NCBI GenBank assembly: GCA_964016885.1
Contig: OZ024741.1
Span: 223,138,001-223,202,000 of the forward strand
Reading direction: 5' to 3'
DNA length: 64,000 bases
DNA from: Eledone cirrhosa
Taxonomy: Eukaryota
Under the pieces are notes generated by a model, which had not been told where the DNA came from, ran no database searches, and saw only the letters and a list, made by a program, of their open reading frames with translations. Of this stretch, positions 22,601-64,000 are shown one piece after another. Position 1 is the first letter of the stretch; each line of letters begins with the position of its first letter. The position numbers were made by a program, and so were the translations under genes.

Positions 22601-25250
22601 GTCATGTTCAAAAAGGAATGGAAAAGATGGGAAAGACCACTTACCTTACTTCTCGTAGAAGAAGGATGGTTTCTCCATCCTTCTCACTATTTGTGGCCTC
22701 CTCCGGAAGGATGTCCTTATAAATCCTCCTGGAGAGTGCTTGTTGGAAGTCTCCGATGTCCTTGGGGAATTTTTGTTTTAGTCGCAAAGCGAAACCTACA
22801 GTCAGTAGGCACCTCTTAACCAAATATACACCCCAATCCACTACCCCTACCCTATCCTCCCACTCCCACCAACACCACCCTCTCTCTATAAAGTTGGTAC
22901 CACAACATCCAGTCCAAATAAATGAGATAAATGAGATCGAGATCGTGTAGGTGTCACGAGAAAAAACACACAGTCCACGCTGTAATGTGGTCGTGTAGGT
23001 AACATGGTAAAAAGTTCCTAGTTCCACACTGTAAATGTGGTTGGTGTTAGGAAGGGCATCCAGCCGTAGAAAACCTGCCAGATAGTCCTATATGAGCGAG
23101 ACATGGTCACCTGACCAACCTTGCCTCAAGTGGGACAACTCCCGTCTAACCCATGTTAGCGTGGAAAATGGACGTTAAACGAAGATGATGATGATGATGA
23201 TGTCGTGTACGTTTTCTGTGTGATGCGAGTGATTTGTATGTGTGGAGGTGGTGTGAATTTTTGGGGTGTTGTGTAGTCTTTTTCTGTGATGCTGGTGTTG
23301 TGTTGGATGTAGTGTAATAATTGGTTATTGTTCAAATTTAATGCTGTGTAGTGTGTATCGTTTTGGTTGTTTTGTTTTGTTTGCGTTTTTTGTGGGTTTG
23401 TTTCTGTTTTACTTTTTGGTGACTTTTGTGGTCTTGGTGATGGTGGTGTTGGGGTTAATGATGGTGATGGTGTTGGTGTTTGTGGTGATGGGGGTTGGTG
23501 ATGCTGGTGTGGATGGTGGCATAGCTGTCCTAACTTTTGTTAGTTTATTTGTTTCCTCCTGTATTTTGTTTTTGGAGGAGGAAGGAAGAACTTTTTATTT
23601 TTGGGGTTCTTTTTCTTTTTTTCTTTTTCCTGATACAGTTTCCCAGTCCTCGTCGTCACAATCTGTCTCCAGTTGCGATAGGTCGGGGAGTGGAAAATCC
23701 TCCACAGGCATTGGCTTTGGTTGTGGCGTGGTGGATGGTGGAGGCACTGGTGTTAGTTCTGGCGCGGTGGTGGTGTTGGTTTTGTTACTGTTGCTGGGGT
23801 TGTTGCTGCTATAGTTGCTTCTGTTGTTGCTGCCATTTCTGCTGCTGGTGGTGTGATAGTTGAGTCACTGGAGTGGGTAAGAGAGGTGGCCTCAACTTTT
23901 TAGCCTGAGGGCAGAAGGCCTTTAGGTGGGTACCTTCACCACAAATGACACACCTAGGCCTTCTGCCCTCGACGATCACGGTGAGGTGGCTGCCGTCAGT
24001 GAGGTCTATCACCTCTGGAATTTCCTCAATGTTTTTTGGGTCCTCTTGGATCAGGAGCACCATCCCAGATCCAGACCAGTTCTCCTGCTTTTCTTTTGTT
24101 ATTTCAATTATTTTCGTGTTGGACTCGATGCCGGCGAGGACGGCAGCCATTAGCCAGGGAATTTTGATGGCCGGTGGAACGTGGGTCATCCGGATCTTGA
24201 CGAGTCTCTGACCACAATAGCTTGGGACAAGTGTGAAGTCGTCGTTTCTTAATGGGGCCATGGAGTTCCCTCTGGCTTCCTGTGGTGTTCCATATTTCTG
24301 CCCACGTCTGATGTGGATTTTTTTTGCCCACACATGTCCCAAAGCTTTTTGTATTTAGGACTCGGATGCCCGTTCCACTCGGCGTGATTCTGTGTTTATC
24401 GTCCGATAAGACACGGTGCATAGGTGCCGATGCTCCATCTTATTAGGTGGTGAGTGGGGGTGGGGTGGGGGTTGAGGCTGACCCTGTACCCATTTATTTT
24501 TACCATTCTCTTGGCTTCATTTAATTCATCCTGGATTACCTCGATTGTTCCGCTTTGCTTGGCTGCTTTGGCAAACGACACTTTGTTTTTCGGTGGTGTT
24601 GATGTTGTTGTTGTTATTCTCATTGTTGTTGTTGCTGTTGTTGTTATTGTTATTTTTAGTTTCAGTTGTGGTGGAGGTGGTGGTGGTGTCAGTGGTGTTT
24701 GGCGTGGAAGAGTCGATTCTGGGTGAATCCGTTTTGATGTCACGAGATAATAATTTTTTTTTTTGGTTTCTGTTGTCACTATGGTGGTGGTGGTGGTGGT
24801 GGTATCAGTGGTGTTCGGTGTTCTTTTTGACATTGTGGTGGTGGGGGTGGCGGCTTTAACACCTGCAGTTATTGGTAATGGCGGGAAATCCATGTCTTTA
24901 TGCGACAATTCTAAATAATTTAGACTGCATTTAATTATATTTTCAGTGTTGGGAACCGTAGCAAGGCTTACAATGGGGTTGGAGGTGGGGGAGGGGGTTG
25001 TTGGTCTGTTAAAAACAGTAAATTTGTCGTCCATGTTTTTTTTTTTCAAAAAAATATTTTGTTTGATAAATAAAAAGTTTAAGTTTTGAGCTCAAGGCCC
25101 CAATATTTTTTGTGTCCTTTTCAGAAAGCAATATATGTGAACTTATAAACACTTAACAACAAAAAATTTCCATAACTGGCAATTTGAAACAACTGAAAAC
25201 AACAAACCTTTGTGGAGCTCACGTTAATACGATTTCCTACGTAGGTCGCC
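19616..25250 (-). mobile_element. Near full-length but inactivated Tx1/L1-clade LINE (ORF1 with CCHC knuckle; ORF2 with APE endonuclease, internally deleted RT and C-terminal zinc finger)
   Basis: ORF1 pieces 24396-25049 and 23809-24342 (CVICGEGTHLKAFC); ORF2 pieces 22003-22611 (SINVRVL, AVYAP, LGDWN), 21302-22045 (TDHK, GPGYWKLN), 20736-21122 (NFRPRTLLNTEFKILAKVLA, DQPKAFDRVDH) and 19933-20748 (CPRC...ETVLHALIQC); AATAAA followed by (ATT)n tail. Confidence 0.92.
22783..23202 (+). mobile_element. RTE 3'-UTR fragment nested antisense inside the Tx1-like ORF1 region
   Basis: near-identical to 57163-57645 and 12075-12475; (GAT)n tail. Confidence 0.85.
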
Positions 25251-42762: not shown

Positions 42763-43361
42763 GTGGGTGTCTGTGACCTATATACACTGGTCACAGACAC
42801 ACACACACACATATATGTATATTTAGAAACCCTTCCTATTTAGCAGGAAATATTTGCTACACGCATCCTCTCCTAACACAAGTTATATGATACATATGAC
42901 TTAATATTCAGTCACCAAATTCGAGCTAGATACAGTAATGCTTATTTGATTCTTTGAAGTCACCTGTTATAATTTCATTCAACAACACCACCATCTCTCT
43001 CTCTCTCTCTATGTCTATCTTTCAATCTACTCTCTCTCAATGATAATCTCTTTCTCTCTCTCTATTCATGAAGGTACCCAGAAAAACCCTGTATCTCGAG
43101 AACACGTGATTCGATTTAGATGAAACTTGTTTTATTCCATTTGTATTCTCATTTCAGGGGCAATTTCCTTTCAAAGTATTTTCCCATTATGCGCCATTTT
43201 GGCTGCATTAAATTACAGACAAGCACATAATCACACAGTTTTAGTAGTATATAGATAACAGCAACAACAATGACAATTAGTGATGATAATAATACTGACA
43301 ATTATAAGGATGAATAAATGTACCAAAATAGAGGGGAGTGGTTCAACCGTTTCAACATTTA

Positions 43362-46300
43362 TTAAGATTCAATCGAAGGAAGGGTTCCCTCATAGCCTTT
43401 TTTACTTATGAGCCAAAATGTAGTCAGAGCCCGTCCAGCAACAGTCATTTCCCCTCGTAGCTCAGTTTCATAGCCTCCAAGTTCATCAAGAATTTTCACT
43501 GTATGTTCACTGAGCTGAATACGTAAAGGTTCCGAACTGGATTCCATTGTGGCTGCAATTAGCATTGTATCTCCAAAGAGGGTGTAACGAGGCATCTTTA
43601 AACCTACCACTCCAGCTACAACAGGTCCAGAATGAACACCAATACGCAACAGGAGTTTACATTTGGGTAAGTGTGGTACTTTCATTGCTAACATGGTTAT
43701 TACTAAGTCCATTGCTGCTGTTGTAATTTCACCTGCATGGGCATTTCCGTTTCGTTCTGGGACACCACTTGCAACAACATATGCATCTCCAATAGTCTCC
43801 ACCTTGTAGACATCATATTTGTGCAATATGGAGTCAAACGTGCTATAGAGGTTATTCAGAAGATCAACTACTTGCATGGGTTGACTGTTCTTCGCAATTG
43901 TTGTAAAACCAACTATATCACTATAGAATACAGTGACACAGCTGAAGTCCTCTGGTTCCACTTTATTCCCATGTTTTAATTCTTCCACTACTTTTTTGGG
44001 TAACATTTGACTAATGATATTATCTACTTTTGCCTTTTCTGCTTCAAGGTCATGGGTGCGCTCAATCACTACTTGCTCAAGGTTATTAGAATAAGACTCC
44101 AGTAATCGAATTAAGTTGTCCATTAGTTCTCCCTTTGTTGGGTAAATATTATCCAACACTAAAAGAAGTTTAGAAAATGTAGGTCTGATCAGAGGTTCAT
44201 CATTCCACACCTCTTCAAGCATTTTGAGGAATTTTTTCTGAGTTGTTTTCCCTTCTGGTAAAAGTTCACTTTTAAGTTGTGGTCGAATAACAAAGATATC
44301 TCCACCAATTGACTGCCATATTTTCTTCTCCTCTCCCAGAACAGGACTATTTTTTTCAGCTATAAGATCCAAAATACTACTAACGGGCAGAAACATCTGT
44401 TCATAAGCAAATGGTACATCTCGAGTGACAATTTCACTGGCAATTATTCCAAAGGAATAGACATCCCCTTCTTTGGTACCCATTTGAATATCATTTAAAG
44501 CCTCAGCAGATGTTAGTAGTTCAGGCGCTGTCCAAAGAAGCTCATGCATCTTCCTTAATTCACTCTCCCACTCAAAATCTTCTTCAGCCATAAGGTAATT
44601 TCCATAGCGAATTGATGGACAGCCAAAACTGGTCAAACGAATGCACCAACGATTATCCAGTAAACAGTTTGAAGATTTGAGACGTCCATGAGAACCAATA
44701 TTAGTTTTGTTGTGAATGAATTCCATACCACTACAAATGTCTTTTAGAAAAGAAAATCGGAAATCCCAGCCAAGGTGTATGGCATCATTGACAAGAATAT
44801 CTTCAAGACTACCCTTACTTGCTGGCTCTATAAAAAAAGACACATTTGGATACGTAAGACAAGCTCCACCGTAAATGATTAAATTTTTGTGATTTAAAGT
44901 TGTCAATTCAACCATTTCCAGTCGGACTGCTTCATCATCGAGATCAACAGTTCTACAGTTCAAACGTTTCACAAACCATTTCTCACGCTTCCAAGTATAC
45001 AATTCATTAGATATTCGGTTGACATGTGGTCCAGATGAATATTTCTTCACATCGGTTTCCTGATTATCAACTTTTGAAACTTCATCCCACAGAACAAGCC
45101 ACTCAAAGTTTGCCAAAGCAGTCCTAAGGTGGATGCGTTTAATGAAATACCGCATCAGTAGATATATAATGCATATGAGAAAAATTATAGAACAACCAAT
45201 TGGAGCAAGAATAGCTGCAAGATGTATTGAACAGGTTCCACCAAGCCACATTGATGAAATGCACACACATTCTCCAGGCATTACGCACTTGCCATGAATG
45301 CATTTGTTTTCACATACTGGTTCCTTACAATTAGGTCCAGACCAGCCAATGTAACACATACATTCGTTTGGTCTATGACAAAAGCCATGCTTGCACGGAC
45401 ACTGTACCGTTGTGCAATTATTTCCCTCATATCCAGGGAAACATTTACAGGTATTCTCTTTGATGCACTTGCCATTACTGAAGAGAGTAACATCTTCCTG
45501 TGATAACATATGACCACAGCTTTCTTCACATGTAAAAGGCGGTATTACCCACTCCTGACGTTGCATGATTTCAGATGGCCATGGTTGACCAGCTTCTTCA
45601 ATTAATTTATCGTCGTACCGGCTAACCACTCCTGTATATGAAGTATATTTTCTCAGGTTAGCTACAGATTTGGGAATGACTAATGGTGGTATCGTTAAGT
45701 TATATGGAGGTAAATTCAATGGAGACTTCACTTCATAAATATACTCACGTGGTGTTGCACCTCCATATTCAATAAGCCTAATTGGAAGAGCTACTAAATT
45801 AGGAGCAGTTACAGTATCAGTGATAGGATTAACCAAAATAATATTTCCAGTAAAGTCAGTTCTTCTACCTTGATGATTAAGAGCCACCTTTCCTGACAAA
45901 CCAACGAACTTAACCTTTTTCATTTCATTTCCAATTTCATCTCCATAAGCAGTCATTTGGCGGGAAACTATGTTGCTTATTGCTTGAGCCATCAACCACA
46001 TACCATCATAACCAATTGCCAAAAAAGATGCTAGTTCTTTATTTGGATATGTTGCTTTACTTCCTAAATACTTAGTTCTATCAATACTGTAAAATCTTTC
46101 GAGTACATGTATCCATTTTTCTGTTTTGAAGTTACTAAATTTGAAAGTTTGAAAAAAGAGTAGTGACCCGCGATAAGCAATGGTACATTTTGGTTCTATC
46201 TGGCAAACAGCTTCATTCATCAAAGGAAAGGAATGAGCATATTCATTTAAAAAAAGCCATTGGTAATTATCAAGTGTAGAAATACCAAATCGGATTCCAG

Positions 46301-48428
46301 AACGCAAAATATATGGCAAAGATCTAATAGAAAAGCATATAATTATTTTTGTCCCAGCCTCCTTTAGTTGTCTCATCTCTTCACCATAAAATTCTGGTTT
46401 CCAACTGGAATCACTGAAAGAATCAAATTCTGCAACATTCACCTTTGTTTTAACTTCAATATTGAATGCATTCACTTTGTTGTTGAATTCAGTATCAATT
46501 GAGCAATTGCTGCTGGTGATAACTGACACTTTCGTCCATTTTCTTTCTTTACAAGCATTCAGAAAAAAATCGTAAACGACTGACGATTTCCAGCAGATAC
46601 TATTGTATGAATTGTCTCCTAAAAAGTAATCATCTTTGTCAGTCAAAGAAATAACGGGCAGGTTTTCTACAATTGTATTTCTGGCAATGGCTTTTGTGAT
46701 CAATGGATTTGATGACAGAAGGATACCGCGCAATTCCGATTCGCTATTTTTATGCACTTCCCTATGTATTTGGTACTGTTGAATACTAAATTCTAGGTCA
46801 TCTTTAGTATTGAATGATTCAATTGTAACTGACATGCCATACTGTGTAAAAATTCCAGGAAGTTGCCCTGAGGTTATGTCACTAGCAGCAAATTTTACAA
46901 AAGTGTCTATATGTGGATATGGGTTTTTAACTGTTCCAGTTACATTAAAATTCCCGAGATGTCCGATGTGAACTTGCCCTGTCACCTTAAAAGCTGGTGT
47001 TTGGACACTTACACCTTGATATACAGTAGAGAAAATTTCTAACCTTACCGAATCAATAATTTCACATATTGAACCTCTCAGCTCCAACAAACCATCTACT
47101 ATCATCCTTGACATGTCTGATGAAAGACATTTGTTTGGAGGGATCGTTTTAATATAAATGTCTAATTTTGAATCAGGACCAGAGTAAATTCTTTTTCCTT
47201 TATCATCAATAATCATTATTTTTATTTGTCCCGGTATGGGAAAATTTCGAGTAATTTTGATAGGTGAAGTAGCTGATTTTAAATTGTGAATAATTTTTAA
47301 ATTTTTAAATTTCTGGGCTTCAACTGTAATATAATTTGTGAAAGTCATACCTGGAATTCCTGCCAAAGTGGGCTTAGTTAAAGGAGGAAACTCAATATAG
47401 TCTTCGTATGAGTGGCTTCGTCCTAAAAGTGTATCATCATAGCAGGTTTTACAATTTGGTATTCTGAACCATGGATCTCTCGCCATATACATAGTTAAAT
47501 TCAGGTTAAAGCCAGCTACAACATCTAAAATCCTAATATCTTCAAAGTTAACTTTACCAGCCACGGCTTGTTTTCGAATAATTACATCGTTTGTACTTTG
47601 ATGTATCATGGTTGAATTGCCTGCCAGTCGGACTGCAGTGATTTTCAAAAGCATCTTTAAATTCTTTTGGAAATAAAATTTTTTATAGCGATACGGTACG
47701 GTCAACTCTACAAAAGCGATGGAATCTAGGCCTGTCGTAACAATGTTACCTTCGTTATCATGTATCTCAGCTGCAACAGTAAAACCTGTGTTGGCTGTGG
47801 CTACAGTTGGCGGTTGTTCGGTGATGACTAGTTTAGCAGCAGGGGTGGTTATATTGATAGGATGTGTGCTTGTGAGAATGTTTAGCTTGGGTACTTCAAT
47901 TTTATATATTCGGCTGGTGCTTGGCATTTTATTCTCTTTATGATAATGAATAACCCAATCAATTATGATGGTTTTATTGAACACTTTTGTTTTTAGAGTG
48001 GTTGGCCCAATATCTGAACCACATGTCATGTAATATTTGAAGCGATTATATCTCTCAGGAAAAAACACATCAGGATTAGTGTTCTGACATAGCTTACCAT
48101 CAGAGTTCATCCAGGTATCATTTTCTGTAGAAGATATACTGGTCACTAATACTTCCATGTTGTGTAGTGAGTCATCAACTTTACTTCCATTAAATGTATT
48201 TATATAGGCAAAAATCGGATAACTGGTAACTTCGTTTAATGGTACTGAGTACTTCATCTTATGTGTACTGGTAGGTATAATTGCAGGAGGTGAGTTTTGA
48301 TTGTCCAAATTAATCTGATACTTTAAAGCACTACCCAATAACATTTGCTTGTAAAGTGTAACTAAAAGCAGTAGATTAAACAGGATGATGTGACTGTTAT
48401 AATAATGAGTACGCTTCAAGGAGTACAT
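43362..48428 (-). CDS. Single-pass receptor guanylyl cyclase-like protein (natriuretic-peptide-receptor-like), 1688 aa, intronless CDS: signal peptide, N-terminal extension, ANF-receptor/PBP1-like domain, 3 EGF repeats, TM, kinase-homology domain, coiled coil, class III cyclase domain
   Basis: 5067-nt uninterrupted ORF; hydrophobic N-terminus; F-x-GLSGKV-x-L-x3-G-x-R motif ending the PBP domain; Cys spacing of EGF repeats; TM LAAILAPIGCSIIFLICIIYLLM; HGRLKSSNC and LLWTAPELL (KHD); YSNNLEQVVIERT; SDIVGFT, YKVETIGDAY and RIGVHSGPVVAGVVGLKMPRY (cyclase). Confidence 0.96.
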   Translation of the reverse strand: MYSLKRTHYYNSHIILFNLLLLVTLYKQMLLGSALKYQINLDNQNSPPAIIPTSTHKMKYSVPLNEVTSYPIFAYINTFNGSKVDDSLHNMEVLVTSISSTENDTWMNSDGKLCQNTNPDVFFPERYNRFKYYMTCGSDIGPTTLKTKVFNKTIIIDWVIHYHKENKMPSTSRIYKIEVPKLNILTSTHPINITTPAAKLVITEQPPTVATANTGFTVAAEIHDNEGNIVTTGLDSIAFVELTVPYRYKKFYFQKNLKMLLKITAVRLAGNSTMIHQSTNDVIIRKQAVAGKVNFEDIRILDVVAGFNLNLTMYMARDPWFRIPNCKTCYDDTLLGRSHSYEDYIEFPPLTKPTLAGIPGMTFTNYITVEAQKFKNLKIIHNLKSATSPIKITRNFPIPGQIKIMIIDDKGKRIYSGPDSKLDIYIKTIPPNKCLSSDMSRMIVDGLLELRGSICEIIDSVRLEIFSTVYQGVSVQTPAFKVTGQVHIGHLGNFNVTGTVKNPYPHIDTFVKFAASDITSGQLPGIFTQYGMSVTIESFNTKDDLEFSIQQYQIHREVHKNSESELRGILLSSNPLITKAIARNTIVENLPVISLTDKDDYFLGDNSYNSICWKSSVVYDFFLNACKERKWTKVSVITSSNCSIDTEFNNKVNAFNIEVKTKVNVAEFDSFSDSSWKPEFYGEEMRQLKEAGTKIIICFSIRSLPYILRSGIRFGISTLDNYQWLFLNEYAHSFPLMNEAVCQIEPKCTIAYRGSLLFFQTFKFSNFKTEKWIHVLERFYSIDRTKYLGSKATYPNKELASFLAIGYDGMWLMAQAISNIVSRQMTAYGDEIGNEMKKVKFVGLSGKVALNHQGRRTDFTGNIILVNPITDTVTAPNLVALPIRLIEYGGATPREYIYEVKSPLNLPPYNLTIPPLVIPKSVANLRKYTSYTGVVSRYDDKLIEEAGQPWPSEIMQRQEWVIPPFTCEESCGHMLSQEDVTLFSNGKCIKENTCKCFPGYEGNNCTTVQCPCKHGFCHRPNECMCYIGWSGPNCKEPVCENKCIHGKCVMPGECVCISSMWLGGTCSIHLAAILAPIGCSIIFLICIIYLLMRYFIKRIHLRTALANFEWLVLWDEVSKVDNQETDVKKYSSGPHVNRISNELYTWKREKWFVKRLNCRTVDLDDEAVRLEMVELTTLNHKNLIIYGGACLTYPNVSFFIEPASKGSLEDILVNDAIHLGWDFRFSFLKDICSGMEFIHNKTNIGSHGRLKSSNCLLDNRWCIRLTSFGCPSIRYGNYLMAEEDFEWESELRKMHELLWTAPELLTSAEALNDIQMGTKEGDVYSFGIIASEIVTRDVPFAYEQMFLPVSSILDLIAEKNSPVLGEEKKIWQSIGGDIFVIRPQLKSELLPEGKTTQKKFLKMLEEVWNDEPLIRPTFSKLLLVLDNIYPTKGELMDNLIRLLESYSNNLEQVVIERTHDLEAEKAKVDNIISQMLPKKVVEELKHGNKVEPEDFSCVTVFYSDIVGFTTIAKNSQPMQVVDLLNNLYSTFDSILHKYDVYKVETIGDAYVVASGVPERNGNAHAGEITTAAMDLVITMLAMKVPHLPKCKLLLRIGVHSGPVVAGVVGLKMPRYTLFGDTMLIAATMESSSEPLRIQLSEHTVKILDELGGYETELRGEMTVAGRALTTFWLISKKGYEGTLPSIES

Positions 48429-48469
48429 TTTTCAAACTTCATACGTCCTTGTTACGGAGAAGATTGTAT

Positions 48470-48492
48470 CTAGAAAAACAAATACAAACAAT
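48470..48492 (-). promoter_or_regulatory. Probable splice acceptor of a 5'-UTR intron, 41 nt upstream of the cyclase ATG
   Basis: minus strand reads ttgtttgtatttgtttttctAG|ATAC..., a polypyrimidine tract followed by AG. Confidence 0.55.
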
Positions 48493-48934
48493 AGAAACCT
48501 TTTAAATATTGATTCATTCTCATTTGAGATAGCAGCATTTAATTATCAAACTATTTATTAATTTAAAGTTATCTAATTTCAAAACAATTCTATTTCTATA
48601 TAATTATTGAACAATTTGTTCATTACTATTTCAACAGATACAGCAACTCTACATTTCTGCTGATGAGGCTAAAAAAAAAAAAAAAAAAAAATTAAAATCA
48701 TATTTGGTGTTGCTCCCTGAAATTTACAAGAGAAAATGAAAAACTATATTTTCTTATCGTATGTTCTATGAAACGGTCCTGGAAGGGAAAAATAGCTTTT
48801 TCTACTTTAAAGTACATATATTTTCCTGAATATTATTTTCCTTATATATGTGTACAAAAACTGTGTTTCTTAAACAATATATGGTTCTCTCTCTCTCTAC
48901 ATAAATCTTTTAAATTTGAATATATGTGTGTATA

Positions 48935-49274: not shown

Positions 49275-51247
49275 GTGTCCGGTCGGCTGACCTTATCTTG
49301 CTCATACGGGAACTGATTCTGGCTTGATTTCTACAGCTGGATGCCCTTCCTAACACCAACCTCATTTACAGTGAGTGCTGGGTGCTTTTTTTCCATGGCG
49401 CCTACACGTCCACTTTACAGTGTGGGCTGGGTGCTTTTTTGCCGTGGCACCTCCACGACCACTTTGCAGTGGGAGGGGGTAGGGGCATATTGTCTATATG
49501 CTTCAGCTTCAGCTTGTACCCATGGGGTGTCGGGTCTTCTGTATTACTGCGCGATGCCAGAGGTCACGGTCGTGTGTCATCACCTTTGAGAGGTGTAATT
49601 GGGTAAGGTCGGCTTTTATCACATCATCCCAGGTCTTCTTGGGTCTCCCCACTCCGTGGCTTCCATCGACTTCTAATGCTCTGCACCTTTTTATGCAGCT
49701 GTCATCCTTCATACGCATCACATGTCCATACCAATGCAACCTCCTCTCCTGCACACAACATTTGATTCCTCTTATGCTCAGTCTCTCTCTCAATTCATTT
49801 ATGCTTCGCTGTTCGTGTATATTACTATTACACATTCATCGGAGCATGCAAGATTTGTTTCTTTCTAATCTATGCAAGTCTTCCACAGACAGCGCCAAGG
49901 TCTCACTACCATGTACCATTGCTGTTCGTATACACACATCATACAGTCTGCCTTTCATTTTGAGGGAAAAGTCTTTTGCAGCTAGCAGTGGCAGTAGCTC
50001 CCTGAACTTCTTCCATCCCGTTCTTACCCTAGTTATTGTACTTTCTGAACACCCACCTCTGCTGCTAATTCGGTCACCTAGGTAGCAGAAGCTATCTACT
50101 GTTTCTACAGAGCCCTCCCAGAGTTTGGTGGTACTTGTTTCCTGTGGCTGTTTGCTGCTTGCTGTCCCAGCGCAGCTGCTACATGTGAAGCCTACATTCT
50201 TAGTTAAGCTTCCTGAGATCCCACTACATCTCTTGTGTACCCCTTGTTTGCATTTGGGGCAGAGAATGGAGTTCTTACCTACACCTTTCCTACATACTGA
50301 GCAAGGCCATTTCCCTGAGGGAATCTGGGTTCTGGTTTCTCGTCTACTTACAAGGACCTTAGTCTTTGTCAGGTTGACTTTGAGACCCCTTCTTTCTAGC
50401 CCCTGCTTCCAAGTTTGGAATTTCTTCTCTAGTTCTACCATAGATTCAGCTATAAGTGCGAGGTCATCTGCATACAGGAGTTCCCATGGGCATCCGGTTT
50501 TAAACTCCTCCGTTATTGCCTGCAGAACTATGATGAACAGGAGAGGGCTAAGAACAGATCCCTGGTGGACACCGACTTGTATGCTAAATTCCTCACTATA
50601 GTCATTGCTAATCCTAACTTTGCTGACTGCTCCCCATTACATGGCTTTTACAGCTTTCACAAGCCATTCATCTACTCCTAGTTTTCTAAGAGCCCACCAG
50701 ATTATAGCACGGGGAACTCTGTCAAAGGCTTTCTTGAGATCGATGAATGCCAGGTAGAGTGGCTTACTTTTAGCTAGGTACTTTTCCTGTAACTGCCTCA
50801 CAAGGAAGAAGGCATCAGTGCTGCCTCTTCCTGGCACAAACCCAAATTGCATCTCATCTCGTTTCACTCGGTCCCTAATCAACTGTGTATAACTCTTTCT
50901 GTTACTTTCATTACCTGGTCCATCAGCTTTATACCTCTATAGTTTCCTCTATCAAGTGTATCTCCTTTACCCTTGTAGCAATTGACAATGATGCTACTGC
51001 ACCAATCCTTTGGTATGACACCTTCTAGTATAACCTGGTTAACAATACGTGTGGTTGTGGTGTGACCTACCGACCCAGATGCCTTCAGCATCTCGGCAGC
51101 TATACCCGATGGACCGGTTGCCTTCCCCGTCTTCATATCTTTGATTGCCTTACTTACTATGCTGCAGCTGACTTGTACTGCTGGCCCCTCTATAGGGTCT
51201 ACTTGGGGTAGGGTCTCTTCTTCCCATGCATTCTCCTCATTTAGTAA

Positions 51248-52744: not shown

Positions 52745-55700
52745 ATTTGGACCAATCATAAGACAACGGCCTATGCTATCACTTCTTCTGGTTGCTTTTC
52801 GATATGATGGATGGACTAAGGAATTTCTGGAGAGTCTGAAGAATCTGGACACTCGGAGACAATGCCAAAGATAACGACAAATTCACCTCATGCTGCCGGA
52901 CGAAAGGGCAAGGTCTCCTCCTCCTTGTTTTGGCCGCGGATGGCCAACATAACTACAACCCCATCCCCCTCACTGCGCCCCAGCCACCAAACGTAATCCA
53001 AAACTTCAGAGTTGGTACCATGAATGTAGGCACCTTAAAAGGTCACTCTAACGAGGTTGTAGAAATGCTTGAACGTAAGGAGGTTGATGTTTGCTGTATC
53101 TAAGATACCAGGTGGAGGGGCGGGTCTGCTAGATTCATTGTGGGTAAAAAACGATGCTATAAGCTTTTCTGGGTGGGAAATGACAATGGGCTGGGTGGAG
53201 TAGGATCATGTTAGCAGAAAAATGGGTGGATAAGATAATAGACGTAAATAGAGTGAATTACAGAATAATTAAAATAAGACTTGTTCTAAATAGAACTACT
53301 GTGACAGTAATATCTGCGTACGCACCCCAATCCGGACTGCCTGGCGCTATAAAAGACAGATTCTATGAGACACTGATGCTCACTACCTCTCAAATAACCG
53401 ACAGTGACTATATAATTATTGCTGGCGACCTAAATGGTCACGTTGGACAACATTGTGATGGCTATGACGGAATCCACGGAGGCTATGGGTTTGGTACTAG
53501 AATTGAGGAAGGCTCCAGAATCCTGGAATTCTGTGACGCAAATAACCTAACTATCTGTAACACTAACTTCAAAAAACGAGACAATCACTTGATCACCTAC
53601 AGATCAGGGGAACATACCAGCCAGGTAGATTATATCCTTACCAGAAGACGTGACAGAGTGTCTGTTGTAAACACTAAATCCCTCCCCCATGAAGAATGCA
53701 CCTCCCAACATAGACTGATAATTAGCGACCTCATAGTCAGGACGAGACGTACTCAACAACAGAAGAGGACTATCCTCAGGAGAAAAATATGGAAGCTAAA
53801 GAACCCCACAGCCAGTAATAAATTTAAAAGCATATTACTTGATGCTTTTGACAGTAAGGAAGAGCATTTAGAGTCGTACAATATAGAGGAACAGTGGGAA
53901 TTCCTGAAAGCAAACCTGCTGATGGCGGCAGACGAAGTCTGTGGCTGGAGCAGGCCTATAGGCAAGAGGAGAGTAACGTGGTGGTGGAACAGTAAGGTGG
54001 AGGAATCAATTAAGGCCAAAAAGCAGGCTTGGAAAGTATGGCGGGATGGGGGAAGTAGAGAAGACTATCAAGTGGCCAGGAGGGAAGCTAGGAGACAAGT
54101 GTACTTCGCAAGAAGGGAAGCAGAGGAAAGAAAGTTCAAGCATGTTCTACAATGCGAGGACCAAAAACGTGAGGTGTTCAGGATTGCTAGGCACTGTGTC
54201 AAGGAAAACCGTGATATTGTCGGGGAGAAGTGTGTCCTTAATGATGATGGTGTACTTGCCATCACTGACGCTGATAAGAAGGTAGCTTGGAAGTGTCACT
54301 ACGAAAGGCTACTAAATGAGGAGAATAAATGGGAGAAAGACAGTCTCCCCCACATTGATCCAATAGAGGGACCAGCAGTGTTAGTCGAAGGTAGTATAAT
54401 AAGTAAGGCAATCAAAGATATGAAGACGGGTAAGGCGGCTGGGCCTTCGGAAATAGTTGCTGAAATGCTGAAAGCTTCTGGAACGGTGGGACACACCATG
54501 GTCACCCGGATAGTAAACCAAGTCATACAGAATGGGGTTGTTCCGAAGGACTAGCGTAGCAGCATCATCATTAACTGCTACAAGGGTAAAGGAGATGCCC
54601 TAGATAGAAGTAACTATAGAGGCATTAAATTAATCGACCAAGTCATGAAGGTCACAGAAAAAGTAATAGCGCAACTAATCAGAGAGAGAATTGATCTAGA
54701 TGAAATGCAGTTTGGGTTTGTGTCAGGTAAAAGTACCACAGACACTCTTTTCCTTGTACGACAAAGAAACAGAACCCAGATCCCCTCAGGGAAATGGCCT
54801 TGCTCAGTATGTAGGAAAGGTGTAGGTAGGAACTCCATTCTCTGCCCCAAATGCAAACAATGGGTACACAAGAGATGTAGCAGGATCTCAGGAAGCTTAA
54901 TTAAGAATGTAGGCTTCACATGCAGCAGCTGTACTGGGACAGCAAGCAGCAAACAGCCACAGGAAACAAGTACCACCAATCTCTGGGAGGGCTCTGTAGA
55001 GACAGTAGACAGCTTCTGTACCTACGTGACCGAATTAGCAGCGGAGGTGGGTGTTCAGAAAGTACAATAACTAGGGTAAGAACGGGATGGAAGAAGTTCA
55101 GGGAACTACTACCACTGCTAGCTGCAAAAGACTTCTCCCTCAGAATGAAAGGCAGACAGTATGATGTGTGTATCTGAACAGCAATGTTACATGGTAGTGA
55201 GACCTGGGCGCTGAAGGTGGAAGACTTATGTAGATTAGAGAGAAACGAAGCCTGCATGCTCCGATGGATGTGTAATAGTAATATACGCGAACAACAAAGC
55301 ATAAATGAATTGAGAGAGAGACTGAGCATAAGAGGAATCAAATGCTGTGTGAGGAGAGGCGGATGCGTTGGTATGGACATGTGATGCGTATGAAGGATGA
55401 CAGCTGCATAAAAAGGTGCAGAGCATTAGAAGTCGATGGAAGCCACGGAGTGGGGAGACCCAAGAAGACCTGGGATGATGTGATAAAAGCCGACCTTACC
55501 CAATTACACCTCTCAAAGGTGATGACACACGACCGTGACCTCTGGCGTCACGCAGTAATACAGAGTACCCGACCTCCCATGGGTACAAGCTGAAGCATAT
55601 AGACAATATGCCCCCACACCCTCCCACTGCAAGGTGGTCGTGGAGGTGCCAGGGCAAAAAAGCACCCAGCCCACACTGTAAAGTGGACGTGTAGGCGTCA

Positions 55701-58071: not shown

Positions 58072-58833
58072 CTGGACCGTCAGGGATAGTTGCTGAGATG
58101 CTGAAGGCATCAGAAGTAGGCACTAAATTGGTTGCATGCATCATCAATCTAGTTATATATGGTGGTGTCATACCCAAAGGCTGGTGCAGCAGTATTCTCA
58201 TAAATTGCTACAAAGGTAAAGGGGATACTCTAGAGACTAGCAATTATAGGGGCATAAAGCTGATGGATCAGGTTATGAAAGTGGCAGAGAGAATATTAGC
58301 GTAACTGATTAGAGAAAGGGTCAAATTAGATGAGATGCAGTTTGGTTTTGTGCCTCGGAAAAGTACAACAGATGCCCTCTTCTTAGTGAGGCAACTACAA
58401 GAGAAGTTCTTTGAGAAGAATAAGCCACTATACTTAGCTTTTGTTGACCTAGAGAAGGCCTTTGATAGGGTACCCCGATCTCTCATCTGGTGGTCCCTAA
58501 GGAAACTAGGTGTAGAGGAATGGTTTGTGAGGACAGTGCAAGCTATGTACAGGGGTGCTGTCAGTAAAGTGAGAGTAGGTATGGAGTTTAGTAAGGAATT
58601 CCAGATACAAGTAGGTGTACATCTGGGTTCAGTCCTCAGCCCGCTCTTGTTCATTATAGTCCTCCAAGCCAAAACAGAGGAGTTTAAGACTGGATGCCCA
58701 TGGGAACTTCTCTATGCTGATTATCTGGTTCTTATAGCAGAATCAGTAGAGGAGCTAGAGAATAAATTCTGGCTATGGAAACAGCAGTTGGAATCGAGAG
58801 GACTGAGAGTGAACCTAGCTAAGACAAAAGTGT
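58072..58833 (+). mobile_element. RTE RT fragment truncated at the start of the tandem array
   Basis: AGPSGIVAEMLKAS, MQFGFVP, DLEKAFDRV, ELLYADYLVL and VNLAKTKVL. Confidence 0.9.
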
Positions 58834-61800
58834 TGAAAAGGTTACTGGCTGGGGAAAAGTTACTGGCTGGGAAAGGTTACTAGCCAGAGAAAGGTTACAG
58901 CCTGGGGAAAGGTTACTAGCCGGGGAAAGGTTACTGGCCAGAGAAAGGTTACTGGCTGGGGAAAGGTTACTGGCCGGAGAAAGGTTACTGGCTGGGGAAA
59001 GGTTACTGGCCGGGGAAAGGTTACTGGCCGGGAAAAGGTTACTAGCCGGGGAAAGGTTACTGGCCTGAGAAAGGTTACTGGCCGGGGAAAGGTTACTGGC
59101 TGGGGAAAGGTTACTGGCTGGGGAAAGGTTACTGGCTGGGGAAAGGTTACTGGCCGGGGAAAGGTTACTGGCCAGAGAAAGGTAACTGGCCAGAGAAAGG
59201 TAACTGGCCGGGGAAAGGTTACTGGCCGGGGAAAGGTTACTGGCCAGAGAAAGGTTACTGGCCAGAGAAAGGTTACTGGCCAGAGAAAGGTTACTGGCCG
59301 GGGAAAGGTTACTGGCTAGAGAAAGGTTACTAGCCAGGGAAAGGTTACTAGCCGGGGAAAGGTTACTGGCTGGGGAAAGGTTACTGGCTGGGGAAAGGTT
59401 ACTGGCCAGAGAAAGGTTACTGGCTGGGGAAAGGTTACTGGCTGGGGAAAGGTTACTGGCCGGAGAAAGGTTACTGGCCAGAGAAAGGTTACTGGCCAGA
59501 GAAAGGTTACTGGCTGGGGAAAGGTTACTGGCTGGGAAAAGGTTACTAGCCAGAGAAAGGTTACTGGCCAGAGAAAGGTTACTGGCCGGGGAAAGGTTAC
59601 TGGCCGGGGAAAGGTTACTGGCCAGAGAAAGGTTACAGGCTGGGGAAAGGTTACTGGCTGGGGAAAGGTTACTGGCCGGAGAAAGGTTACTGGCCAGAGA
59701 AAGGTTACAGGCTGGGGAAAGGTTACTGGCCGGAGAAAGGTTACTGGCTGGGGAAATGTTACTGGCCGGGGAAAGGTTACTGGCCGGGGAAAGGTTACTG
59801 GCCAGGGAAAGGTTACTAGCCAGAGAAAGGTTACTAGCCAGAGAAAGGTTACTGGCTGGGGAAAGGTTACTGGCCGGAGAAAGGTTACTGGCCAGAGAAA
59901 GGTTACAGGCTGGGGAAAGGTTACTGGCCGGAGAAAGGTTACTGGCCAAGGAAAGGTTACTAGCCAGAGAAAGGTTACTAGCCAGAGAAAGGTTACTGGC
60001 TGGGGAAAGGTTACTGGCCGGAGAAAGGTTACTGGCCAGAGAAAGGTTACTGGCTGGGGAAAGGTTACTGGCCGGAGAAAGGTTACTGGCCAGAGAAAGG
60101 TTACTAGCCAGAGAAAGGTTACTGGCCAGAGAAAGGTTACTAGCCAGAGAAAGGTTACTGGCCAGAGAAAGGTTACTGGCTGGGGAAAGGTTACTGGCCG
60201 GAGAAAGGTTACTGGCCAGAGAAAGGTTACTGGCTGGGGAAAGGTTACTGGCCGGAGAAAGGTTACTGGCCAGAGAAAGGTTACTGGCTGGGGAAAGGTT
60301 ACTGGCCGGGGAAAGGTTACTGGCCAGAGAAAGGTTACTAGCCAGAGAAAGGTTACTGGCCAGAGAAAGGTTACTGGCCGGAGAAAGGTTACTGGCCAGA
60401 GAAAGGTTACTAGCCAGAGAAAGGTTACTGGCCAGAGAAAGGTTACTGGCCAGAGAAAGGTTACTGGCTGGGGAAAGGTTACTGGCCGGAGAAAGGTTAC
60501 TGGCCAGAGAAAGGTTACTGGCTGGGGAAAGGTTACTGGCCAGAGAAAGGTTACTGGCCAGAGAAAGGTTACTAGCCAGAGAAAGGTTACTGGCCGGAGA
60601 AAGGTTACTGGCCAGAGAAAGGTTACTGGCTGGGGAAAGGTTACTGGCCGGAGAAAGGTTACTGGCCAGAGAAAGGTTACTGGCTGGGGAAAGGTTACTG
60701 GCTGGGGAAAGGTTACTGGCCGGAGAAAGGTTACTAGCCAGAGAAAGGTTACTGGCTGGGGAAAGGTTACTAGCCAGAGAAAGGTTACTGGCCGGGGAAA
60801 GGTTACTGGCCGGGGAAAGGTTACTGGCCAAGGAAAGGTTATTGGCCAGAGAAAGGTTACTGGCCAAGGAAAGGTTATTGGCCAGAGAAAGGTTACTGGC
60901 CAGAGAAAGGTTACTGGCTGGGGAAAGGTTACTGGCCAGAGAAAGGTTACTAGCCAGAGAAAGGTTACTGGCCGGGGAAAGGTTACTGGCCGGGGAAAGG
61001 TTACTGGCCAAGGAAAGGTTATTGGCCAGAGAAAGGTTACTGGCCAGAGAAAGGTTACTGGCTGGGGAAAGGTTACTGGCCGGAGAAAGGTTACTAGCCA
61101 GAGAAAGGTTACTGGCCGGGGAAAGGTTACTGGCCAAGGAAAGGTTACTGGCTGGGGAAATGTTATTGGCCGGGAAAAGGTTACTGGCCAAGGAAAGGTT
61201 ATTGGCCAGAGAAAGGTTACTGGCCAGAGAAAGGTTACTGGCTGGGGAAAGGTTACTGGCCGGAGAAAGGTTACTGGCCAGAGAAAGGTTACTGGCTGGG
61301 GAAAGGTTACTGGCTGGGGAAAGATTACTGGCTAGAGAAAGGTTACTGGCCAGGGAAAGGTTACTGGTCAGAGAAAGGTTACTGGCCAGAGAAAGGTTAC
61401 TGGCCGGGGAAAGGTTACTGGCTGGGGAAAGGTTACTGGCTGGGGAAAGGTTACTGGTCAGAGAAAGGTTACTGGCTGGGGAAAGGTTACTGGCCGGGGA
61501 AAGGTTACTGGCCAGGGAAAGGTTACTGGCTGGGGAAAGGTTACTGGTCAGAGAAAGGTTACTGGCCGGGGAAAGGTTACTGGCTGGGGAAAGATTACTG
61601 GCTAGAGAAAGGTTACTGGCCAGGGAAAGGTTACTGGTCAGAGAAAGGTTACTGGCCAGAGAAAGGTTACTGGCCGGGGAAAGGTTACTGGCTGGGGAAA
61701 GGTTACTGGCTGGGGAAAGGTTACTGGCCAGGGAAAGGTTACTAGCCAGAGAAAGGTTACTGGCTGGGGAAAGGTTACTGGTCAGAGAAAGGTTACTGGC

Positions 61801-64000
61801 TGGGGAAAGGTTACTGGCTGGGGAAAGGTTACTGGCTGGGGAAAGGTTACTGGTCAGAGAAAGGTTACTGGCTGGGGAAAGGTTACTGGCCGGGGAAAGG
61901 TTACTGGCCAGGGAAAGGTTACTAGCCAGAGAAAGGTTACTGGCTGGGGAAAGGTTACTGGCTGGGGAAAGGTTACTGGCTGGGGAAAGGTTACTGGCTG
62001 GGGAAAGGTTACTAGCTGGGGAAAGGTTACTGGCCGGGGAAAGATTACTGGCTGGGGAAAGGTTACTGGTCAGAGAAAGGTTACTGGCTGGGGAAAGGTT
62101 ACTGGCTGGGGAAAGGTTACTGGCTGGGGAAAGGTTACTGGCCGGGGAAAGGTTACTGGCTGGGGAAAGATTACTGGCTGGGGAAAGGTTACTGGTCAGA
62201 GAAAGGTTACTGGCCGGGGAAAGGTTACTGGCTGGGGAAAGATTACTGGCTGGGGAAAGGTTACTGGCCAGAGAAAGGTTACTGGCTGGGGAAAGGTTAC
62301 TGGCTGGGGAAAGGTTACTAGCCAGAGAAAGGTTACTGGCTGGGGAAAGGTTACTGGCTGGGGAAAGGTTACAAGCCAGAGAAAGGTCACTGGCTGGGGA
62401 AAGGTTACTGGCTGGGGAAAGGTTACTAGCCAGAGAAAGGTTACTGGCTGGGGAAAGGTTACTGGCTGGGGAAAGGTTACTAGCCAGAGAAAGGTTACTG
62501 GCTGGGGAAAGGTTACTGGCTGGGGAAAGGTTACTAGCCAGAGAAAGGTTACTGGCTGGGGAAAGGTTACTGGCTGGGGAAAGGTTACTAGCCAGAGAAA
62601 GGTTACTGGCTGGGGAAAGGTTACTGGCCGGGGAAAGGTTACTGGCTGGGGAAAGGTTACTGGCTGGGGAAAGGTTACTGGTCAGAGAAAGGTTACTGGC
62701 TGGGGAAAGGTTACTGGCCGGGGAAAGGTTACTGGCCAGGGAAAGGTTACTAGCCAGAGAAAGGTTACTGGCTGGGGAAAGGTTACTGGCTGGGGAAAGG
62801 TTACTGGTCAGAGAAAGGTTACTGGCTGGGGAAAGGTTACTGGCCGGAGAAAGGTTACTGGCTGGGGAAAGGTTACTGGCCAGAGAAAGGTTATTGGCCG
62901 GGGAAAGGTTACTAGCCAGAGAAAGGTTACTGGCTGGGGAAAGGTTACTGGCTGGGGAAAGGTTACTGGCCAGAGAAATGATACTGGCCGGGGAAAGGTT
63001 ACTGGCCAGAGAAAGGTTACTGGCTGGGGAAATGTTACTGGCCGGGGAAAGGTTACTGGCCGGGGAAAGGTTACTGGCTGGGGAAAGGTTACTGGCTGGG
63101 GAAAGGTTACTGGTCAGAGAAAGGTTACTGGCTGGGGAAAGGTTACTGGCCGGGGAAAGGTTACTGGCCGGGGAAAGGTTACTGGCCAGAGAAAGGTTAC
63201 TGGCTGGGGATAGGTTACTGGCTGGGGAAAGGTTACTGGCTGGGGAAAGGTTACTGGCCAGAGAAATGATACTGGCCGGGGAAATGTTACTGGCCGGGGA
63301 AAGGTTACTGGCCGGGGAAAGGTTACTGGCCAGAGAAAGGATACTGGCCGGGGAAAGGTTACTGGCCAGAGAAAGGATACTGGCTGGGGAAAGGTTACTG
63401 GCCGGAGAAAGGTTACTGGCCAGAGAAAGGTTACTGGCCAGAGAAAGGTTACTAGCCGGGGAAAGGTTACTGGCCGGGGAAAGGTTATTGGCCAGAGAAA
63501 GGTTACTGGCCAGAGAAAGGTTACTAGCCGGGGAAAGGTTACTGGCCAGAGAAAGGTTACTAGCCAGAGAAAGGTTACTGGCCGGGGAAAGGTTACTGGC
63601 CGGGGAAAGGTTACTGGCCAGAGAAAGATTACTGGCCAGAGAAAGGTTACTGGCCAGAAAAAGGTTACTGGCCAGAGAAAGGTTACTGGCTGGGGAAAGG
63701 TTACTGGCCGGAGAAAGGTTACTGGCCAGAGAAAGGTTACTGGCCAGAGAAAGGTTACTGGCCGGGGAAAGGTTACTGGCCAGAGAAAGGTTACTGGCCA
63801 GAGAAAGGTTACTGGCCAGAAAAAGGTTACTGGCTAGAGAAAGGTTACTGGCTGGGGAAAGGTTACTGGCTGGGGAAAGGTTACTGGCTGGGGAAAGGTT
63901 ACTGGCCAGAGAAAGGTTACTGGCCGTGGAAAGGTTACTGGCCAGAAAAAGGTTACTGGCCAGAGAAAGGTTACTGGCTGGGGAAAGGTTACTGGCCGGG
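58834..64000. repeat. 18-bp minisatellite/satellite, consensus GAAAGGTTACTRGCYRGR, about 287 units, running off the window end
   Basis: strict 18-bp period; phase is unchanged from 58921 to 64000; a single 17-bp unit near 58868. Confidence 0.98.

Follow-up and report, generated by a model that had tools for sequence, protein, structure and literature searches.

A cephalopod receptor guanylyl cyclase with half of its catalytic site replaced and a sister paralogue as its likely partner

The 64,000-nucleotide stretch of the Eledone cirrhosa genome analysed here (contig OZ024741.1, positions 223,138,001 to 223,202,000; the window) encodes a membrane receptor guanylyl cyclase (GC), P0001, whose cyclase domain retains one half of the catalytic site and has replaced most of the other. 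We refer to this gene and its orthologues as class A, and to a sister group of paralogues as class B. The residue patterns of the two classes are conserved and reciprocal, the classes are sisters in the tree, and they occur together in the same genomes. Together, these features suggest that class A likely makes cyclic GMP (cGMP) only as a heterodimer with class B, in which one site would be active and the other would be a pseudo-site.

Catalytic residues of class A and their conservation

P0001 is an intronless open reading frame (ORF) of 1688 codons that is free of stop codons (43362-48428, on the minus strand, as are all class A features below). Its cyclase residues were assigned by alignment to the solved structures of NPR1 (E 3e-66) and GC-C (E 6e-62). 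The motifs quoted in an initial annotation of the window (YSDIVGF, KVETIGDAY and MPRYTLFGDTMLIAATMES) are all present in this intact frame, and the three substitutions named there, Cys to Thr, Asn to Leu and Arg to Thr, are upheld by the alignment. In the active site described by Winger et al. (PMC2576301), one monomer supplies two Asp and one Arg, with the P-loop/helix alpha1 as its triphosphate site, and the other supplies Glu, Cys, Asn, Arg and Lys. Class A keeps the first of these halves: the metal-binding Asp1504 (GAT, 43917-43919) with the intact P-loop DIVGFT (43902..43919), Gly1547 and the metal-binding Asp1548 (GAT, 43785-43787) within KVETIGD (43785..43805), and the triphosphate-binding Arg1595 (CGT, 43644-43646). 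The second half is largely lost. Across 43548..43583, Thr1616 (ACC, 43581-43583) stands for the Cys of NPR1 and GC-C, Leu1623 (CTA, 43560-43562) for the canonical Asn and Thr1627 (ACA, 43548-43550) for the canonical Arg, and Ala1664 (GCT, 43437-43439) replaces the canonical beta7-beta8 Lys. The initial annotation was thus right to place the Cys, Asn and Arg losses in a single half-site, but it missed the fourth loss, which lies outside the interval it described. It also counted the Glu of KVET (Glu1544; GAG, 43797-43799) with the retained half; this residue in fact sits in the Cys/Asn/Arg/Lys half-site (PMC2576301; PMC6005667, Table 1), so that four of the five residues of that half are lost and the guanine-selecting Glu-Cys pair, complete in class B, is incomplete in class A.

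Because four of eight catalytic residues (Cys, Asn, Arg and Lys) are missing, class A does not hold the whole site in one chain as homodimers of the NPR1/GC-C type do. What remains is the composition of an Asp-donating half (i.e., two metal-binding Asp and the triphosphate-binding Arg present; Asn, Arg and Lys absent), and this composition was found in 5/5 of the class A rows grouped in the tree and in 9/9 class A records. We also considered adenosine-to-inosine RNA editing as a rescue of the missing residues, which the codons rule out: A-to-G changes in the class A codons cannot yield Cys, Asn, Arg or Lys.

The nine class A records (the window, Octopus vulgaris, O. sinensis, two O. bimaculoides isoforms, Argonauta, one Logan record and two ENA proteins) all have Thr for Cys, Thr for Arg and no Lys, and Asn is replaced by Leu in seven and by Gln in two. 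Identity of the cyclase domain to class A orthologues is 97-98% for Octopus and 88% for Argonauta, compared with 76-84% for the pseudokinase domain and 45-67% for parts of the ectodomain; over the full length, the closest named proteins among the matches listed are from Octopus (70-72%) and Argonauta (61%). A contig from sequencing run X1 spans 43204-48600 with 0 differences, X1 being possibly the assembly's own source and not independent of it; the other runs, X4, X5 and X6, gave coverage of only a small part of the ORF. An intronless gene in a genome that also holds a broken copy of the same family might be read as a decaying retro-pseudogene or as the product of sequencing error, but such a reading is scarcely credible here: the 1688-codon frame is intact, identical substitutions recur in 9/9 class A records, the cyclase is the best-conserved domain (88-98% to orthologues), and the marks of a processed pseudogene (stops, frameshifts and neutral divergence) were not found. 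Orthologues with the same substitutions rule out sequencing error or decay as their source. Judged by protein identity to its orthologues, the class A gene is under strong constraint and not decaying, which bears out the earlier view that its half-site was selected.

Class B and the wider receptor family

Searches of the Eledone genome with the cyclase and with the N-terminal region scored the best candidates only, and the locus counts are lower bounds. They revealed at least three family loci: class A, an intact class B gene and a broken class B gene. Neither search found a canonical family member among its best candidates, and no paralogue with lost aspartates was found among these family loci. 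The intact class B gene, P0005 (G000, contig C13, 7266488-7271506), is intronless, encodes 1672 amino acids with the same architecture as class A, and is 37% identical to it. In P0005, Glu, Cys, Asn, Arg and Lys are all retained, as are both Asp; thus, a paralogue in the same genome has the residues that class A lacks. It reads DIVNFG where class A has DIVGFT, and ESICDS where class A has ETIGDA. The initial annotation had suggested looking for a paralogue that had lost Asp and kept Cys, Asn and Arg. The sister does keep those three, but its aspartates are present, and the altered positions are instead two in the P-loop (Gly and Thr) and the hairpin Gly before the second Asp.

The broken class B gene (loci L031/L032; contig C13, 7257695-7260976, minus strand) lies beside P0005 in divergent orientation and has five frame changes, four stops and a gap of ~590 residues (about 637-1228 of P0015). 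Intact-looking relatives of this copy are on record in Octopus and Argonauta. The O. vulgaris records P0009, P0010 and P0173 are gene models that fuse tandem class B copies on one contig and point to a class B array; in a B copy in P0009, the second Asp is replaced by Ala. Records of both classes exist for O. vulgaris, O. bimaculoides, O. sinensis and Argonauta, in addition to the genome studied here.

Three protein searches and one profile search yielded 91 proteins with an intracellular match among the matches listed, from choanoflagellates (Salpingoeca, Monosiga), Hydra, Hydractinia, an annelid, bivalves, gastropods, a centipede and cephalopods. We aligned 70 of these, leaving out 8 near-duplicates, 7 fragments, fused or incomplete models and 6 multi-cyclase proteins from outside the family. 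Five tree-defined groups hold 63 of the 70 rows, and seven rows stand apart (four non-family outgroups, P0229, P0018 and P0175); for several rows of the cephalopod and Hydra-containing clades, the taxon is deduced from the position in the tree. All 12 scored sites are intact in the canonical rows (27/27). In cephalopod class A, the seven sites on the Asp/P-loop side are intact in 5/5 rows, and Cys, Asn, Arg and Lys are present in 0/5. In class B, 13/13 rows have both Asp, Arg1595, Glu, Asn, Arg and Lys or Arg at the Lys site, and 12/13 have Cys, but the residues found in class A at Gly1507 (P-loop), Thr1509 (P-loop) and Gly1547 (hairpin) are each present in 0/13. Their replacements vary (N/D; A/G/S/C; S/C, respectively), with the P-loop reading DIANFS in P0015, P0173 and P0226. 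Ser at Ala1549 and Leu at Lys1611, the Lys of the dimer arm, are also fixed in class B.

When 32 of the 70 rows were placed in a maximum-likelihood tree built from kinase and coil columns only, with the cyclase excluded, class A and class B came out as sisters (100/99) nested within canonical annelid, bivalve and gastropod genes (99/98). A second split was found outside the molluscs. In the clade that includes Hydra P0170 and Hydractinia P0167, the transition-state Arg has been lost from 12/12 rows. In that of Hydra P0186, the P-loop Thr is gone from 6/6 rows and the hairpin Gly from 2/6; the two clades group together weakly (86/82). Approximately unbiased (AU) tests, whose groups had been named beforehand from residue patterns and a first FastTree, rejected joining cephalopod class A with the Arg-less Hydra clade (p 0.00024) and class B with the Thr-less Hydra clade (p 1e-12). 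These tests reject a single origin of the cephalopod and Hydra-clade splits, which likely arose separately; the Hydra-clade split is, from its residues, similar to the cephalopod one but milder. Thus, on two occasions, one copy has lost the Arg side and its counterpart the P-loop Thr, and neither loss occurs in the 27 canonical rows. This repeated pairing is the strongest argument that the class B changes matter, with two events behind it.

Several other members depart from the canonical pattern. Two ENA proteins, P0018 and P0175, which fall in the cephalopod B clade and the Hydra-containing Arg-less clade (one in each), are degenerate at both half-sites and are candidate true pseudo-cyclases. 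P0024 (Strigamia maritima) and P0229 (eukprot) may represent further independent Asn/Arg losses; P0024 also has Asn for the first Asp, in an incomplete cyclase model.

A proposed heterodimer and its alternatives

We propose that the two classes dimerise through the coiled coil and cyclase domains. In the single active site, class A would give Asp1504, Asp1548, the P-loop and Arg1595, and class B would give Glu1517, Cys1589, Asn1596, Arg1600 and Lys1637. Class A homodimers would be dead, given the established roles of Asn, Arg and Lys, and the aspartate side of class B is presumably disabled, since its P-loop Gly and Thr and its hairpin Gly are gone. The mirror site, where the class B aspartates face Thr, Leu, Thr and Ala of class A, would be a pseudo-site without catalysis, like that of soluble GC (sGC) and membrane adenylyl cyclase (AC). 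The single site would be switched by an extracellular ligand that the two different ectodomains sense, the signal passing through the pseudokinase and coiled coil. The pair probably arose when a self-sufficient ancestor was duplicated in the cephalopod line, with complementary losses in the two copies afterwards. The residue patterns support an obligate partnership for class A better than one for both classes, because the inactivation of class B homodimers is only inferred. An ESMFold2 model of the A/B coil and cyclase with GTP and Mg scored 0.66 against 0.00 for the best control (a mark reached by 51/78 solved complexes and 2/108 mismatches), with runs agreeing on at least 90% of contacts and a partner predicted local distance difference test score (pLDDT) of at least 84. 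Residues 1507-1510 of class A and residues 1589, 1596, 1600 and 1637-1639 of class B are part of the modelled interface.

A number of observations weigh against this interpretation. Class B has all eight textbook catalytic residues, both aspartates included, and the P-loop Gly, P-loop Thr and hairpin Gly sites were picked after class B had been seen; the literature searched gave no mutational data on them. Some changes of the class B type are tolerated singly, as Ser occurs at the P-loop Gly in the nematode GC records P0182, P0188 and P0211 and Cys follows the second Asp in AC5/AC8 C1. The changes in class A are not limited to the half-site: of 114 cyclase columns that the canonical rows conserve, an unbiased scan found 23 to be altered in class A and 11 in class B, many of these changes being conservative and outside the half-sites. 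P0018 and P0175, degenerate at both half-sites, indicate that the Ig/ANF/EGF family includes fully dead receptors as well. Similar complexes have been solved and the catalytic-domain interfaces of cyclases are promiscuous (PMC3591389), so the ESMFold2 model shows compatibility and likeness, not partner choice. The isolated cyclase of fungal RGC1 is active alone and that of its partner NeoR is not (PMC10622942). Finally, class A and class B lie on separate contigs (C2 and C13).

Some of these observations would fit a one-sided dependence, in which class B is an active homodimer of reduced or altered activity and class A an optional partner that yields an A/B dimer with one good site and a different ligand or regulation. 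This arrangement, the main alternative, is plausible but rather unlikely. It draws on the complete set of Asp, Asp, Arg, Glu, Cys, Asn, Arg and Lys in 12/13 class B rows, on the aspartates kept in 13/13, which suggests that they are still important, on the activity of the isolated RGC1 cyclase, on the tolerated nematode Ser, and on copy number (class B is multi-copy in several genomes and one class A gene per genome was found among the matches listed). However, the three sites that are invariant in 27/27 canonical rows are variably replaced in 13/13 class B rows, a pattern of relaxed constraint, and the same Thr was lost independently in the Hydra B clade, just where an Arg-less sister exists. 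The P0009 copy lacks the second Asp, and sGC beta too retains one pseudo-site Asp (PMC6005667, Table 1).

Class A could instead act outside catalysis, binding ligand or GTP and metal and signalling by protein contacts as a dominant-negative subunit, decoy or scaffold. Loss of four of five residues in one half, the 23 altered columns and the existence of doubly degenerate members would all suit such a pseudo-cyclase, which we nonetheless regard as improbable: all seven scored sites on the Asp/P-loop side are kept in 5/5 rows, for which a pure scaffold has no evident need, and the sister class is altered on exactly that side. The promiscuity of cyclase interfaces (PMC3591389) and the many canonical GC exons in the genome would also allow class A to pair with an unrelated canonical receptor GC (NPR-like, from intron-containing genes). 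That class B is its sister, shares the whole ectodomain architecture and carries reciprocal changes makes such a pairing very unlikely. Nor do we expect class A to be active as a homodimer through an altered mechanism or with another nucleotide, the least probable of these forms of activity. Its metal ligands, P-loop and Arg1595 are intact and some cyclases tolerate variant base-selecting residues (Glu-Gly in Cya2, PMC6005667), but Asn, Arg and Lys are all gone, and sGC alpha, with the same pattern, has no homodimer activity (PMC3591389).

The proposed A/B heterodimer would work like sGC alpha/beta and AC C1/C2, and by comparison with them belongs to neither family. Like class A, sGC alpha keeps Asp, Asp, Arg and the interface Glu and lacks Asn, Arg and Lys (PMC6005667, Table 1), and the human protein shows the same Asn/Arg loss; alpha keeps the Cys that class A has lost, however, and sGC beta lacks the first Asp that class B has. 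Class A is a membrane receptor with a membrane helix and no Pfam matches to H-NOX, H-NOB or PAS domains, and the Eledone genome has a separate sGC-alpha-like exon. The C1 half of AC5 (DIEGFT; Asn and Arg lost) resembles class A, and the C2 P-loop of AC5 (SIANFS) resembles those of class B (DIANFS, DIVNFG), with Asn, Arg and Lys kept in C2. In contrast, C1 and C2 of mammalian membrane AC share one chain and A and B are two genes, and C2 has lost both aspartates, which class B keeps together with the guanine-selecting Glu and Cys. The closest solved cyclase relatives of class A, NPR1 and GC-C, share its ANF-transmembrane-pseudokinase-coil-cyclase core, but each has the full catalytic set within a single chain and is without the ~450-residue Ig-like extension and the EGF repeats.

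The idea of a heterodimeric receptor GC is less unprecedented than the initial annotation implied, because two such systems have been published. Chytrid RGC1/2 and NeoR are membrane GCs that function only as heterodimers (PMC7655827); they are fungal light sensors, and the activity of isolated RGC1 offers a precedent for one-sided dependence. For ODR-1 and DAF-11 of Caenorhabditis elegans, which are single-pass receptor GCs, an obligate heterodimer has been proposed in which each monomer supplies essential residues to one site (PMC5225109), with formal proof in native cells still awaited (PMC8045692). The proposed A/B pair would be alike in being a single-pass heterodimeric receptor GC, but it differs in its Ig-like, ANF and EGF ectodomain, in its origin by a duplication in the cephalopod line and in a partner that keeps both aspartates. 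The tree puts the A/B split after the annelid-mollusc divergence, which argues for analogy with ODR-1/DAF-11, neither of which is in our alignments. Heterodimeric receptor GCs are known already. Our literature search, which left out most subscription journals and supplements, turned up no paper that deals with the Ig/ANF/EGF family, with the loci described here or with a heterodimeric receptor GC in a cephalopod or Hydra; within that reach, we saw no published account of the family, of its repeated split or of a partner that retains its aspartates.

More tentatively, an ancient Ig/ANF/EGF receptor GC family that extends from choanoflagellates to molluscs may have changed from homodimer to obligate heterodimer on at least two occasions, with cephalopods and Hydra-type cnidarians following the same route: one copy would drop the transition-state Arg side and the other would keep its aspartates but disable its P-loop. 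The pseudo-site would then be aspartate-lined and open to allosteric control, and one class A protein could pair with several class B ectodomains for combinatorial ligand sensing. In the literature found, heterodimeric single-pass animal GCs have so far been argued mainly from ODR-1/DAF-11, and the A/B and Hydra pairs offer a testable second and third case. Because self-sufficient relatives persist in bivalves, gastropods and annelids and Hydra provides an independent replicate, in an animal where genetics exist, living outgroups are available for studying how a two-site homodimer becomes a one-site heterodimer. If the proposal is true, disabling the P-loop is a cryptic half-site kill that an eight-residue check scores as active; aspartate-retaining cyclases may thus be half-dead, which would alter how "active" is annotated. 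In practice, either subunit alone would fail in ligand screens. A role in sperm chemotaxis was also considered, in view of the intronless gene, the fast-evolving ectodomain and the automatic "speract receptor-like" labels on class B records, and drew no support from any analysis.

Domain layout of class A and other features of the window

The 1688-residue class A protein (43362..48428; ORF and Pfam) has the domain order of a receptor GC, with an ANF-type ectodomain, one membrane helix, a kinase-homology domain, a coiled coil and a class III cyclase. An N-terminal hydrophobic stretch (residues 14-32, 48333..48389; hydropathy 1.84) is a likely signal peptide. Residues 36-490 (46959..48323) have no Pfam match and are predicted by AlphaFold2 to form tandem Ig-like beta-sandwich domains (pLDDT 92.8 and predicted template modelling score 0.86 with a 33-row alignment; pLDDT only 30 from the single sequence). 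The PDB structures that matched this model were Ig-like arrays, with a TM score of at most 0.28, i.e., with no close solved relative, and a search of the ESM Atlas gave no match at 0.9 or above and Ig-like leads only. The ectodomain continues with an ANF_receptor ligand-binding-type domain (residues 532-866, 45831..46835; PF01094, E 2.4e-18) and EGF-like repeats (residues 970-1071, 45216..45521; PF23301, PF25024 below its cut-off, and PF07974). A single transmembrane helix (about residues 1070-1095, 45144..45221; hydropathy 2.81 at 1070) leads to the kinase-homology domain (residues 1148-1422, 44163..44987; PF07714, E 4.3e-22), a pseudokinase by motif, with HGR for HRD at 1247. The coiled coil or signalling helix (residues 1433-1490, 43959..44132) is 95% identical to Octopus orthologues and holds most of the lowest-error A-B model contacts, and the cyclase domain follows (residues 1491-1674, 43407..43958; PF00211, E 1e-53).

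A pyrimidine-rich tract ending in AG (48470-48500, minus strand), ~40 bases 5' of the ATG, is a possible splice acceptor of the 5' untranslated region. Just 3' of the stop codon, 43100-43260 is a high-copy dispersed repeat that very many contigs and reads match in all four runs. Elsewhere, retroelement-like fragments with zf-RVT and endonuclease/phosphatase domains and an ORF with a PHD finger lie at 19933-22611 (minus), 53208-54554 (plus) and 49836-50441 (minus). A satellite with an 18-bp unit in a 54-bp period (95.6 copies, 90% matches) occupies 58837-64000 and runs off the end of the window; it accounts for two long ORFs without a Pfam match, at 59756-64000 (plus) and 58819-63999 (minus).

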